Origin: a virus
Taxonomy: Duplodnaviria; Caudoviricetes
Direction: 5' to 3' (one strand)
DNA: 64,000 nt
IMG/VR virus record: IMGVR_UViG_3300021399_000012
Coordinates: 1-64,000 of that record
Shown here: in pieces, positions 36,915 to 45,413 of the stretch
Numbering within the stretch: position 1 is the first letter of the stretch
How the letters are laid out: each line of letters begins with the position of its first letter
The notes under the pieces: generated by a model
The model's database searches: none
What the model was told of the DNA's origin: nothing
Seen by the model: the letters and a program-made list of their open reading frames with translations, nothing else
Program-made: the position numbers and the translations under genes

Positions 36915-37727
36915 ATGAGTGAACAATATTTAGCCCATCATGGCATACGAGGTCAAAAATGGGGAAAGAAAAATGGTCCCCCTTATCCTTTAGATTGGAC
37001 CGATCATTCTACAGCAGAAAAGAAAGAACTGACTAAGGATGAAATACGTGCCATGACTGAGGACATGGATGAAGTTACAAACTTCAACAAGAGAGTAGCT
37101 GTGTACTATGATACAAAGATGGAAGTCAATAAATCGCAGGCACAGTATCTCGATAGTAAGAAAACCGCAGGAGAAAAATTCAAAGAGAATCTCAAGAATA
37201 AATTAACCAGCGGAATTATCGACGGATTGAGCAAAGGTGCTTCAAAAGCTGTTGAAACATCCATAAACAACATCACTGATGAATTATGGAAGAGAGCGAG
37301 AGAGCAGATGGATCCAGAAGGCGAAGCTATGAAAGCTAAGACTGCTGAACTGGAAAGAAAGAATGCTTTATCGAAAGCACAAAGCGAATACGATCGATAC
37401 AAGAAAGAAAAAGAGAACAAGCAGGTAAACGATGTGTTATCTAAGCTTGACCTAGAAGACAAATTACGTAAAGCAACACAAGCGAAAGAAGACGCTTCTT
37501 ATTATAGAGAAAAAGAACTTGCAAATAGAGCAAGGGAAGAAGCCGAGACAAAGGCTAAAACTCAGGAAGCTCTTAATAAGCTTGCTAAAGCAGAATATGA
37601 GCGTGATTTAATGTCAAACGACCCATCTAAGTTCTTTAGTAATGATAAAAAATCAAAAGGTTCATCAGACAGTCTATCAGAAGATGACGTACGTAGAATA
37701 GCTAAAGAAATAATGGATGAGATGTAA
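36915..37727 (+). CDS. head-region accessory protein with LAHHG..GQKWG N-terminus
   Basis: MSEQYLAHHGIRGQKWGKKNGPPYPL; charged coiled-coil remainder. Confidence 0.7.
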   Translation: MSEQYLAHHGIRGQKWGKKNGPPYPLDWTDHSTAEKKELTKDEIRAMTEDMDEVTNFNKRVAVYYDTKMEVNKSQAQYLDSKKTAGEKFKENLKNKLTSGIIDGLSKGASKAVETSINNITDELWKRAREQMDPEGEAMKAKTAELERKNALSKAQSEYDRYKKEKENKQVNDVLSKLDLEDKLRKATQAKEDASYYREKELANRAREEAETKAKTQEALNKLAKAEYERDLMSNDPSKFFSNDKKSKGSSDSLSEDDVRRIAKEIMDEM

Positions 37728-37756
37728 AAAAAATCAAAATACGGGGGTAAATAGAA

Positions 37757-39496
37757 ATGGCGTTGTCCAATACAGCGGTTCCCGTTTACTATGGACAATT
37801 TAGAGATCAAGTCTTACGTGGTGAAATACCCGTAAACGAGTTCATAGCCATGGAAATGAACCGTATCGATAGTCTAATAGCCAATCCAGGAATTTATTAC
37901 GATGATAAAGCTATGGATGGTTTTGTAGAGTTCTGTGAATGCGAGTTAACACTTACGGATGGTGCAGACCTAAAGCTATTAGACTCATTTAAATTATGGG
38001 CCGAACAAATATTCGGCTGGTATTACTTTCAAGAACGTAGTGTCCCAGTACCAGATGAAAATGGTATAACACATTACGTTAAGAAAACTATCAAGAAACG
38101 TTTAGTTAATAAACAGTATTTGATAGTTGCCAGAGGTGCTGCCAAATCAATGTATGGTTCTTGTATACAGAACTATTTCTTGAATGTTGACACATCAACT
38201 ACACATCAGATAGCAACTGCTCCAACTATGAAGCAGGCCGATGAAGTTATGTCACCTATAAGAACTGCCATAACAAGAGCTAGAGGTCCTTTGTTTAAAT
38301 TCTTAACAGAAGGATCTTTACAAAACACCACTGGTTCTAAAGCCAATAGAGTTAAACTGGCATCTACGAAAAAGGGTATAGAAAATTTCCTGACTGGTTC
38401 TCTATTGGAAGTTAGACCAATGAGCATAAATAAGCTTCAAGGTTTAAGACCAAAGATTTGTACAATCGATGAGTGGCTATCAGGAGATATACGAGAGGAT
38501 GTAATCGGTGCATTAGAGCAAGGTGCCTCTAAGATAGATGACTATTTAATAGTTGCTATATCTTCAGAAGGTACAGTTCGAAATGGAGCTGGAGACACAA
38601 TCAAAATGGAGCTCTTAGATATTCTTAAGGGCGAGTATGTGAATCCTCACGTATCTATATGGTACTATAGACTTGATAAAGTGGAAGAAGTTGCCGATCC
38701 TAATATGTGGATAAAAGCAAACCCAAATATAGGTCTGACTGTTTCTTATGAAACATATCAATTGGACGTAGAAAGAGCCGAGAAAGCTCCAGCTGCTAGA
38801 AATGATATTTTAGCAAAGAGATTCGGAATTCCTATGGAAGGTTACACATATTTCTTCTCATATGAAGAGACTATACCTCATAGAAAACAGAATTTCTGTG
38901 GTATGCCATGCGCTTTGGGTGGCGATATGTCACAGGGCGATGACTTCTGTGCATTTACATTCTTATTCCCATTACGTGATGGATTCGGAGTGAAGACTCG
39001 AAGTTATATTTCATCATTAACATTACATCGATTACCAGGAGCTATGCGAGCAAAGTATGACGAGTTCATAGAAGAAGGAAGCTTGATAGTATTGGAAGGC
39101 AATATTCTTGATATGATGGAAGTTTACGACGATCTCGATAAACACATAATCGATCAAGAGTATGACGTTCGATGCTTTGGCTATGATCCATATAATGCTA
39201 AAGAATTTGTAGCTAGATGGGAACTCGAGAATGGACCTTTCGGTATAGAGAAAGTAATACAAGGAGCGAGAACAGAAACAGTTCCACTCGGAGAACTTAA
39301 GAAATTATCAGAAGAAAGAGCACTATTATTCGACGAAGAGCTTATGTGCTTTACAATGGGTAATTGTATAACACTAGAGGATACAAATGGTAATAGAAAG
39401 TTGTTAAAGAAGAGATATGAAGCTAAAATCGATAATGTAGCAGCTATGATGGATGCGTTTGTAGCTTATAAGTTGAATAAAGATGCATTCGAGTAA
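37757..39496 (+). CDS. terL: terminase large subunit
   Basis: VARGAAKS Walker A, TIDEW Walker B, C-terminal nuclease with KIDNVAAMMDA. Confidence 0.9.
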   Translation: MALSNTAVPVYYGQFRDQVLRGEIPVNEFIAMEMNRIDSLIANPGIYYDDKAMDGFVEFCECELTLTDGADLKLLDSFKLWAEQIFGWYYFQERSVPVPDENGITHYVKKTIKKRLVNKQYLIVARGAAKSMYGSCIQNYFLNVDTSTTHQIATAPTMKQADEVMSPIRTAITRARGPLFKFLTEGSLQNTTGSKANRVKLASTKKGIENFLTGSLLEVRPMSINKLQGLRPKICTIDEWLSGDIREDVIGALEQGASKIDDYLIVAISSEGTVRNGAGDTIKMELLDILKGEYVNPHVSIWYYRLDKVEEVADPNMWIKANPNIGLTVSYETYQLDVERAEKAPAARNDILAKRFGIPMEGYTYFFSYEETIPHRKQNFCGMPCALGGDMSQGDDFCAFTFLFPLRDGFGVKTRSYISSLTLHRLPGAMRAKYDEFIEEGSLIVLEGNILDMMEVYDDLDKHIIDQEYDVRCFGYDPYNAKEFVARWELENGPFGIEKVIQGARTETVPLGELKKLSEERALLFDEELMCFTMGNCITLEDTNGNRKLLKKRYEAKIDNVAAMMDAFVAYKLNKDAFE

Positions 39497-43493: not shown

Positions 43494-43511
43494 CATAGGA
43501 GGACATTCAAA

Positions 43512-45413
43512 ATGGGATCAAAATATGATTTCGGTGGTTACGCTACTCGAAATGATCTCCGTTGCTCTGATGGTCGAATCATTAGACATAATGCATTTAT
43601 CGATAATGACGGCCAGGTTGTAGCATTAATGTGGAATCACAAGCATGATACTATTGATTCTGTAATCGGTCACGCATTGCTTGAAAATAGAGAAGATGGC
43701 GTTTACGCTTATTGTTCTCTTAATGATTCTCCAGGAGCTGACAAAGCTCGTAGTGCTATTAAACATGGTGATATAGATTCATTATCTATATATGCAAACC
43801 ATTTGAAGCAGAATGGCAACAATGTCATTCATGGAGTTATTCGAGAAGTAAGCTTAGTTTTGGCAGGAGCGAATCCTGGTGCTCGTATCGACACCGTTAT
43901 GATTCACTCTGATGCTGAAGACGGTGAGGAGGCAGAGATTTTTATGCATTCACAAATGGATATCTTCAACGACGATCTTGCTGATGATATGTTAGATGAC
44001 GACATCATGCATGCTGACAGTGACGATGAAGATGAAAAAGGAGAGACTGTCGAAGATGTGTTTAACACATTGACAGAAAAGCAGAAGAAAGTCGTTTATG
44101 CGATAATTGGGCAAGCAATTCAGGACGCAAAGGCTGGAAAATCTGCAAAGCATTCTGACGAGGATGAAGGAGATGACGATGTTATCGCTCATGCTGAAAT
44201 GGAGCTGGGTGACGACGCTACAGTCGAAGATGTATTTAATACATTGAATGAAACTCAGAAGAATGTAGTTTATGCGCTTATCGGCCAGGCGTTAGAAGAG
44301 GCTGAAATTCAACATTCAGATTATGAAGGAGACTACGAAATGAAAGAAAATGTTTTTGATACTGATAGTGTTATGACAACAACTTTGTCACACGCAGATA
44401 TTGAAGAGATTATGGATGACGCAAAGCGCTACGGTTCCCTTAAGGATTCTGTACTTGCGCATGCAGCTGATTATGGTATTGAGAATATCGGAACATTGTT
44501 CCCATATGAGCCAGAAGATGGTAAGTTACTTAATGACCCATCATTTATTCAGAGAGATGACAGCTGGGTTCCTAAGGTTGTTCAGGGTGCTCATCACTCA
44601 CCATTCTCTAGAGTAAAGTCTATCTTTGCTAACATCACAGAGGATGAAGCAAGAGCTAAGGGTTACATTAAGGGCCACCTGAAGAAGGAAGAGGTATTCC
44701 CACTCTTGAAGAGAGCTACTTCTCCTACAACAATCTACAAGAAGCAGAAGCTCGATAGAGATGATATTGTAGATATTACAGATTTCAATGTTGTTAACTT
44801 TATTAAGGGTGAGATGAAGATCATGCTTAATGAGGAAATCGGTAGAGCTATCCTGGTTGGAGACGGTAGAGCTGCATCTGATGAAGATAAGATTTCTGAG
44901 CTTAACATTCGTCCAATCTGGACAGATCATGAGTTGTACACAATTACTCAGACGGTTCCATTAGCAGCTAATACTAAAGATGATGATAAGGCTAAGGCTA
45001 TCGAGAGAGCTGCTGTAAAGGCACGTAAGAACTACAAGGGTTCAGGAAATCCTACATTCTTCACAACAGAAGATGTTCTTACAGACATGCTGCTTCGTGA
45101 GGATACTACAGGACGTAAGATCTACTCATCTATCAACGAGCTTGCTACAGCTCTTAGAGTTAAGGAGATCGTTACAGTTCCAGTAATGGAAGGCCTTACA
45201 AGAGAAGTTGGTGGTAAGACACATACACTTCAGGGTATTATCGTTAATATGAACGATTACAATATCGGTGCTGATAAGGGCGGAGAGCTTAACATGTTCG
45301 ACGACTTCGATATCGATTACAACCAGCAGAAGTACTTGATTGAGACTCGTATCTCAGGTGCTTTGGTTAAGCCATACTCTGCAATCGTAATTGAGACAGT
45401 ACCAGCTGCCTAA
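43512..45413 (+). CDS. prohead protease - scaffold - major capsid polyprotein (HK97 type)
   Basis: N-terminal protease (FGGYA, WNH, LSI, EVSLVLAGANPGA), acidic linker with two repeats, C-terminal capsid domain. Confidence 0.85.
   Translation: MGSKYDFGGYATRNDLRCSDGRIIRHNAFIDNDGQVVALMWNHKHDTIDSVIGHALLENREDGVYAYCSLNDSPGADKARSAIKHGDIDSLSIYANHLKQNGNNVIHGVIREVSLVLAGANPGARIDTVMIHSDAEDGEEAEIFMHSQMDIFNDDLADDMLDDDIMHADSDDEDEKGETVEDVFNTLTEKQKKVVYAIIGQAIQDAKAGKSAKHSDEDEGDDDVIAHAEMELGDDATVEDVFNTLNETQKNVVYALIGQALEEAEIQHSDYEGDYEMKENVFDTDSVMTTTLSHADIEEIMDDAKRYGSLKDSVLAHAADYGIENIGTLFPYEPEDGKLLNDPSFIQRDDSWVPKVVQGAHHSPFSRVKSIFANITEDEARAKGYIKGHLKKEEVFPLLKRATSPTTIYKKQKLDRDDIVDITDFNVVNFIKGEMKIMLNEEIGRAILVGDGRAASDEDKISELNIRPIWTDHELYTITQTVPLAANTKDDDKAKAIERAAVKARKNYKGSGNPTFFTTEDVLTDMLLREDTTGRKIYSSINELATALRVKEIVTVPVMEGLTREVGGKTHTLQGIIVNMNDYNIGADKGGELNMFDDFDIDYNQQKYLIETRISGALVKPYSAIVIETVPAA

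Follow-up and report, generated by a model that had tools for sequence, protein, structure and literature searches.

We identified a short motif, a hydrophobic residue two positions before a histidine (hydrophobic-x-His), at the N-termini of head-module proteins, of the RNA polymerase and of the portal protein of a gut phage, and again within the spacer of its protease-capsid fusion protein. The DNA analysed, referred to here as the window, is a stretch of 64,000 nucleotides (positions 1 to 64,000 of IMG/VR virus record IMGVR_UViG_3300021399_000012) from the start of a complete genome of 72,052 bp that has direct terminal repeats, and statistics on the window put the observation far beyond chance. 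The phage belongs to the 1706 / FP_oengus / actinophage supercluster, which infects Firmicutes and Actinobacteria. We consider it somewhat probable that a scheme like that of phage T4 operates here, in which the capsid-fused S78 protease would cut after the His and the tagged cargo would be packed in the head.

The fusion protein has 633 residues (43512-45413) and joins an S78 prohead protease, through a spacer, to an HK97-type capsid protein; its layout is as follows:

43512-43907, + strand: prohead protease domain (S78; PF04586), residues 1-132, ending at VMIH132
43908-44462, + strand: scaffold-like spacer, residues 133-317, with sites at 146, 167, 214, 227, 268, 294 and 317
44463-45413, + strand: HK97-fold major capsid protein domain, residues 318-633 (316 residues and 35.3 kDa if cut after H317)

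The protease domain matches PF04586 with 27.2 bits over residues 24-129 (cut-off 21), and its residues H43, S92 and S114 are invariant among 44 aligned fusions. The capsid domain reaches 20.1 bits against PF05065, under the cut-off of 24.2, and its HK97 fold was found from an AlphaFold2 (AF2) model, which aligned in VIA-align with gene transfer agent (GTA), HK97, T5, D3 and actinophage capsids at Z 12-15 over 225-270 residues. A PDB sequence search with the fusion protein returned nothing at E <= 0.01, and the mature N-terminus is thus not obtainable from a solved structure.

Between residues 130 and 318 the fusion has eight His (132, 146, 167, 214, 227, 268, 294 and 317), in line with the count of about eight given by an earlier sequence-only reading of this DNA. 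All eight are followed by S or A, and seven have M, F, I or L two positions before, H214 having A. In the capsid domain, that position is not hydrophobic for any of the five His. Cuts at all eight sites are predicted to release a protease of 14.4 kDa and a capsid protein of 35.3 kDa, along with seven peptides of 13-47 residues from between them; small peptides are the usual fate of a scaffold that has to exit the shell. The AF2 model has a mean predicted local distance difference test (pLDDT) score of 75, with a beta-rich protease domain (1-129) at about 90 and disordered stretches (pLDDT <50) at 133-178, 211-229 and 267-287 that hold sites 146, 167, 214, 227 and 268; H132 lies at the protease domain's end, just ahead of the first of these stretches. 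In alignments with mature HK97-fold capsid proteins, the match starts at model residues 316-319, which places H317 where a maturation cleavage is expected. Residue 109 of HK97 (1ohg) pairs with model residue 317. As mature HK97 begins at residue 104, H317 is no more than about 5 residues away from the point where HK97 is cut (K103/S104).

The same arrangement was found among 78 distinct fusions, including those of Arthrobacter phage Mudcat, Gordonia phage Eddiemania and Lactococcus phage 1706. L, I, M, V or F stands two residues before 430 of 453 spacer His (95%), against a share of 21% for such residues in the spacer, and S, A, G or N comes next after the His in 89%. Per 100 residues, the spacer has 3.9 His and the capsid domain 0.9, a fourfold difference. 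Four sites are near-invariant (H132 in 78 fusions, H167 in 76, H294 in 78 and H317 in 76), and the window fusion has four more. As separate observations on the spacer, it carries two helical repeats (residues 180-208 and 238-267; window 44049-44312), which are copies of VEDVFNTL.E.QK.VVYA.IGQA, and at residue 279 (window 44346-44348) a Glu (YEMKENVF) where 67 of the 78 relatives keep the His of M-K-H-N-V-F.

Upstream of the fusion, four proteins carry leaders that end in the same motif; two of them also match the Pfam family DUF7211 (PF23847). They are referred to below by their first position:

36915-37727, + strand: DUF7211 protein of 270 residues, with leader MSEQYLAH (His 36936-36938), tag HGIRGQKWGKKNGPPYPL and a charged helical region
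39509-40318, + strand: cargo candidate of 269 residues, with a 19-residue leader (39509-39565), DUF7211 (39542-39601), a glycine-zipper stretch and a C-terminal domain of unknown kind
40742-41113, + strand: cargo candidate of 123 residues, with a 19-residue leader (40742-40798), then a coiled coil; no DUF7211
41133-42152, + strand: cargo candidate of 339 residues, with a 19-residue leader (41133-41189), then the motif NHKYINRFRGRNGKWIYEY; no DUF7211

The long leaders are MERAEFYSALYDSNNYLEH (39509), MNRDDYFSKLSKSKNALSH (40742) and MDRREFYSNLADSREALEH (41133), each with a Shine-Dalgarno sequence and an ATG. When the N-terminal 19-mers of the 85 window genes were compared without gaps under BLOSUM62, the three leader pairs took ranks 1-3 among 3,570 comparisons (z 7.0, 5.9 and 5.2). 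Likeness downstream of the leader or tag was at shuffle level (z -0.6 to 1.1). The sequence-only reading had described three leaders that align without gaps on otherwise unrelated proteins, and these figures bear it out; every string that it quoted was found in its place, including YLAHHG in 36915 and SLMHYG in the polymerase. The protein at 36915 reads MSEQYLAHHG, and AGGAG stands before its ATG (36915), not before the GTG at 36906. Different codons encode about half of the identical leader residues (5/8, 5/12 and 4/8 in the three pairs), which places the conservation in the protein rather than in a DNA repeat and points to selection on the peptide. As 40742 and 41133 have no DUF7211, the long leader is the sole element that these two have in common.

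Leaders that resemble one another could also be a functionless remnant of recent duplication or recombination in this phage. They are indeed more alike within than between genomes, with five copies of MNDYL.Y..KYSNELYH in locus L079 and three of MWTYN.TAYPDELYH in locus L038. We nevertheless regard such a remnant as very improbable, given the unrelated downstream parts, the different codons for identical residues, and an L-x-H that is kept across phyla and thousands of protein clusters. Two further candidates were rejected. The 19-residue leaders do not mimic the stretch before H317 (AKRYGSLKDSVLAH), since their local alignment to the whole fusion was no better than that of shuffled leaders (z -0.2 to 0.9), which leaves hydrophobic-x-His as the only common part. 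The I-I-M-H of the connector family (40378 and relatives) stands at an internal position and so was not counted as a site.

Relatives were examined in 80 IMG/VR loci retrieved via the capsid fusion, and in these the strongly conserved element was found C-terminal to the His. It is DUF7211, H-[HY]-G-[VI]-x-G-[MQ]-K-W-G, of which YLAHHGIRGQKWG and YLEHHGVDGQKWG are parts; the Pfam entry gives no function. The protein at 39509 scores 28.1 bits in a six-frame genome search and 24.7 bits in hmmscan (gathering cut-off 27), and that at 36915 scores 19.9-23 bits against the same cut-off; both hold all the near-invariant motif residues (L, H, G, G, W and G). PF23847 is matched by 118 of 123 tagged open reading frames (ORFs) of relatives. 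Conservation was counted with the core G[MQ][KRHQ]WG as the sole anchor, not with early regular expressions that fixed some of the positions. Among 351 distinct tag sites in the loci, the His stands five residues before the core in 99% and L or I stands two residues before the His in 97%; [HYF]-G follows the His, the sites are mostly at ORF starts, and all 351 are on the + strand. Actinobacteria phages are arranged alike (Mudcat gp07 and gp09; Eddiemania gp15 and gp17-20). L.H occurs in the first 40 residues of 34% of genes upstream of the capsid gene versus 11% downstream.

The leader had been taken by the sequence-only reading for the main packaging tag, a view that the relatives do not favour. 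Leader sequences vary, and their lengths (Met and His counted) cluster around two values, 7-8 and about 15 residues; an aromatic pair near the Met, like EFYS in the window, is present in about half of the long leaders. Relatives of the 39509 and 41133 proteins match only within the N-terminal 25-45 residues, and relative L086 matches the 39509 protein at residues 4-46 only (74%). What stands of the modular tag proposed by that reading is the conserved hydrophobic-x-His common to head proteins, polymerase, portal and spacer; the leader is probably not the main tag, and the conserved part comes after the His. A second short motif, HKY[IL]-x(5-14)-G-K-W-x-Y-x-Y, was observed after the L-x-His leader in 41133 (window 41214-41270) and in L037, L044 and L134, and it opens a leaderless protein in L131; it had no match in Pfam or PHROGs.

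The polymerase and the portal carry forms of the motif of their own:

32325-35525, + strand: single-chain two-barrel RNA polymerase of 1066 residues (phrog_4291, E 2e-297), with a DFDGD motif and a C-terminal helix-turn-helix (HTH)
42177-43493, + strand: portal protein (PF04860), with N-terminal MPAFTDRLAHAWNAF (window 42177-42221; His 42204-42206)

The polymerase begins with an acidic leader of 19 residues, MEEFFDDDFEEDSEESLMH (His codon 32379-32381), followed by a variant tag, YGTKRHSGRYKYGSG, and reads ...EESLMHYG. Its N-terminus matches DUF7211 weakly (12.3 bits, 32355-32393). In tblastn with the polymerase, all 40 matches listed begin at query residue 17, the S of SLMHYG. The variant, L-x-H-Y-G-[TM]-[PK]-R-[RH]-S-G-R-Y-P-W-G-S-G, was found in eight relatives in the loci and in orf75 of phage 1706, and also on small proteins of locus L080, which bridge the two tag forms. 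For the portal, 35 of 46 portal-like ORFs of relatives have hydrophobic-x-H-x-W in the first 45 residues, and most (35/46) have R-L-x-H-[AGS]-W-N-A-F at residues 7-15. This portal motif may be either a further His site, trimmed as in lambda gpB, or a structural motif.

The tag and the fusion gene were found together from both directions. The fusion matches 246 isolated-phage records (hosts Arthrobacter, Gordonia, Streptomyces, Lactococcus, Faecalibacterium and others) and the polymerase matches 250, from the same host genera. This co-occurrence places the phage in the supercluster (described in bioRxiv 10.1101/842583), for which we asked for a common protease-capsid fusion, portal, terminase large subunit (TerL) and HTH-flanked two-barrel RNA polymerase. 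The tag is present in 61 of 81 sources found via the capsid gene. In the reverse test, a scan of viral contigs by the tag alone gave 80 loci, of which 45 have the fusion gene, as do 19 of the 24 that are at least 15 kb long. Protease and capsid are in one frame in 37 of 41 matching ORFs of these loci, and 89% of the spacer His in the tag-found fusions have a hydrophobic residue two positions before. The five long loci (at least 15 kb) with no fusion have the tag inside an early-region protein of about 300 residues; they probably come from phages of this kind whose capsid gene falls outside the locus, since the polymerase N-terminus stands at the edge of two of them. Tblastn with an actinophage tag matched 176 of 50,697 phage records, all from genera of hosts in which the fusion and the polymerase occur as well.

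We also noted early-region proteins of about 300 residues in L097 (9470-10393), L110 (9500-10423) and L118 (9497-10378), in which a His-rich N-terminal domain (HIHRNPHHWQHW) is accompanied by an internal VLAHHGVKGQKWGVRNGPPYPL and the C-termini vary, so that tagged genes exist outside the head module too.

The linkage of tag and fusion gene bears on a second explanation, in which the sites are cut by another agent, either a host protease or the tag itself. Prp, a host protease, processes the capsid and scaffold proteins of Staphylococcus phage 80alpha, which offers a precedent, and the link made here between the protease domain of the fusion and the sites is one of sequence comparison. However, the motif is identical in phages of Actinobacteria and Firmicutes, whose common factor is the phage's own fused protease, this protease was found with the tag in both search directions, and the tag has no catalytic-looking residues besides the His. 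We judge another cutting agent to be improbable.

Gene junctions give a further view of the sites. Modules that are free-standing behind M-x(n)-L-x-H in some phages are joined via L-x-H in others. Two portals illustrate this by their C-termini: that of L003 (7957-9981) is joined via L-x-His to a YASPYYDP..AHEYY basic protein and that of L051 (1536-3326) to a DUF7211 protein, each of which other phages encode as a gene of its own. A third case is Eddiemania gp15, where a LigT-like phosphoesterase precedes an internal tag. Searching with a profile of the 36-residue module matched 53,035 protein clusters (E <= 0.001; 1.84 billion representatives). The top matches are polyproteins of 2-5 modules, spaced at a median of 214 residues, which is roughly the length of a tagged protein that stands alone. 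In addition, the metagenomic polyproteins P0005-P0018 have up to 1,569 residues and 3-5 [SL]-Y-L-E-H-H-G tags; a glutamine-deamidase toxin domain forms the end of one of them, and a GNAT domain is present in another.

A serious rival to cutting is a docking motif that is never cut. L-x-H-[HY]-G..G.KWG would then bind the inner capsid surface, the scaffold or the portal, like an encapsulin cargo-loading peptide, and the spacer His would be scaffold contacts or pH-switch residues with the protease cutting elsewhere. DUF7211 is conserved on both sides of the His, and cleavage at the sites is something that we infer. AF2 models the lone 36-residue tag as coil (pLDDT 58-72); the result decides little, and such a tag with no autonomous fold would suit a peptide that folds upon binding. 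Yet 95% of the spacer His obey the rule although the spacer sites have only hydrophobic-x-His in common with DUF7211, the sites lie at domain borders with one at the HK97-equivalent maturation point, and the fused or split gene junctions and multi-tag polyproteins look like processing sites. Uncut docking seems unlikely to us, and docking and cutting are compatible with each other.

What lies beyond the tag is diverse. The sequence-only reading had called for a survey of leader-bearing cargo in relatives, and the regions past the tag in 130 tagged ORFs fell into 60 BLAST clusters, toxin-like enzymes included, with Pfam domains for GNAT (4), papain-fold glutamine deamidase (2), ADP-ribosyltransferase (1) and portal (1). 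The candidates in the window are charged helical (36915), glycine-zipper (39509), coiled coil (40742) and very basic (41133; isoelectric point 9.9 and 26% K+R past its His). Gene 15 of Eddiemania (L084, 3599-5287), annotated 'RNA ligase', combines a LigT/2H-phosphoesterase domain with several L-x-H sites and a DUF7211 in its interior, and is possibly a packaged enzyme against a cyclic-nucleotide or RNA-based defence. In the record of phage 1706 (EU081845), orf7 and orf75 were labelled 'structural protein' by the depositors and their neighbours 'unknown'; orf7 has two DUF7211 copies and further L-x-H sites, and orf75 is the polymerase homologue (...SLQHYGTKRHSGRYPWGSG). Garneau and colleagues, in 2008, reportedly based these labels on virion mass spectrometry. 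The record of ReqiPepy6 had no proteomic notes in it.

Several observations count against the T4-like scheme. A serine prohead protease with His at P1 is, to our knowledge, without precedent. The residues after the His in DUF7211 ([HYF]-G) are conserved too, which fits a binding motif equally well, and they are unlike those at the spacer sites (S/A/G/N, then D/E). H294 and H317 are in predicted helices of the AF2 model, not in disorder, and a buried hydrophobic-x-His stands inside the protease domain too, so that the motif alone is insufficient to define a site. The strand agreement of the tag sites weighs little, as most genes of these phages are on the + strand. Finally, the evidence from phage 1706 consists of product names in a record, and 'structural protein' is silent on cleavage.

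Under the T4-like scheme, the capsid protein would be made as one chain of S78 protease, scaffold-like spacer and HK97-fold capsid domain. After procapsid formation, the protease would cut behind the His of [L/I/M]-x-His, which would release the protease domain, reduce the spacer to peptides of 13-47 residues able to exit the shell, and leave a capsid protein of about 316 residues starting near residue 318. The proteins at 36915, 39509, 40742 and 41133, the portal and the polymerase, which bear the same motif at their N-termini, would be built into the procapsid, trimmed and retained with the DNA, and would probably be delivered to the next cell. The head-loading element is more likely to be the peptide just after the His (DUF7211, or the GRY.WGSG variant on the polymerase) than the leader, and the conserved tag would then stay on the cargo. 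The long aromatic leaders of the window may add to loading and may matter for 40742 and 41133. Cleavage, His as P1, the targeting element, the presence of this phage's proteins in the virion and their injection are all steps that we infer. Taken more broadly, hydrophobic-x-His with DUF7211 could be a portable head-loading code in a very large phage lineage, read by a capsid-fused serine protease of an undescribed P1 = His specificity and delivering the polymerase along with swappable toxin-like or anti-defence enzymes, a view that we hold tentatively, as possible though not quite probable.

Our literature searches found no paper on the motif or on a His-specific prohead protease, and no His site was described in the literature on capsid-protease fusions, capsid targeting and the virion proteomes of relatives. 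No paper was found for DUF7211, and tag strings such as GMKWG and MKWGV gave chance matches only. The mentions in Klyczek 2017 and the Giantsbane preprint are confined to the fusion gene.

The nearest known counterpart is T4, in which a capsid-targeting sequence on IPI-III and Alt is removed by the prohead protease gp21 at [L/I]-x-E (PMC9026906, PMC9958956). In T4, and on our reading in the present system too, short N-terminal leaders on unrelated head-internal proteins end in a three-residue code that is also used on capsid and scaffold proteins, a hydrophobic residue stands two before the cut, and the cargo includes host-modifying enzymes. The present system differs in that its protease is of another family (S78, HK97 type, rather than the T4 type) and is fused to the capsid protein, the site has His instead of Glu, the phages are siphophages of Gram-positive bacteria, a conserved tag follows the presumed cut, and the present system is predicted from sequence. 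It thus appears to work like that of T4 and not to be a member of it by descent. In phiKZ-like giant phages such as SPN3US, the protease gp245 acts at A/S/G-x-E, ejection proteins are processed and virion RNA polymerase subunits are packaged (PMC5694885, PMC10052503). There, as in the scheme proposed here, one cleavage code spans many head proteins and a virion-borne RNA polymerase travels with the DNA, but SPN3US and its kin are giant myoviruses whose protease is of the T4 type and whose polymerase is multisubunit, whereas the phage described here has 72 kb, a single-chain YonO-like polymerase and a His code.

MuF-anchored polyvalent proteins (Iyer et al. 2017, PMC5512222) and the Dar proteins of phage P1 (PMC9024508) put swappable effectors (ADP-ribosyltransferase, deamidase, GNAT) on a head-incorporation module, as is proposed here, with genes beside portal and terminase; the anchor here would be DUF7211 of about 25 residues instead of a MuF domain, and the modules are parted by L-x-His. 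As to PF23847 itself, the tags of 39509 and 36915 match the model, whereas the portal and two window leader proteins have L-x-His without the remainder of it. HK97, with its gp4 and the delta domain of gp5, shares the S78 protease family, the capsid fold and a scaffold segment fused to the capsid protein, which is degraded in HK97 and predicted to be so here, but its protease is separate, is taken in by a C-terminal tail and cuts after Lys. We know of no tagged cargo in HK97. The virion RNA polymerases of N4 and crAss-like phages are phage polymerases carried in the particle for early transcription, as is proposed here, and they belong to other polymerase lineages; a common protease-site leader is not known to us in these phages.

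The packaging and head module has the order RNA polymerase, DUF7211 protein, TerL, three small genes and the connector, portal and fusion. The genes of the phage are on the + strand throughout, and the G+C content is about 36%. The position of 36915 before TerL is that of 1706 orf7 and of Mudcat gp07. Two other genes in this region are:

37757-39496, + strand: terminase large subunit (PF20441, E 6e-34; phrog_9)
40378-40752, + strand: head-tail connector protein (PF24829, E 2e-24)

Further downstream (window 48586-55467), a tape measure protein of 2293 residues has at least 4 tandem units of about 75 residues (LAERLGQ.GYM.I..Y..F.NAGF..FGLAK..F.N.A.AM..L), as seen in the translation.

Should this interpretation hold, it would assign a role to a Pfam family that abounds in phages of gut, rumen and soil, define a new prohead-protease specificity and explain the route by which the supercluster's own RNA polymerase enters the particle. 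It would also point to a large pool of proteins, some of them toxin-like, which probably enter the cell by injection and exert their effect during the first minutes of infection. Cultivable members exist, namely Lactococcus phage 1706 and many SEA-PHAGES isolates on Arthrobacter, Gordonia and Streptomyces. On the broader view, about 30 added residues could send any protein into these capsids, which would make the tag a simple means of packing siphophage heads.

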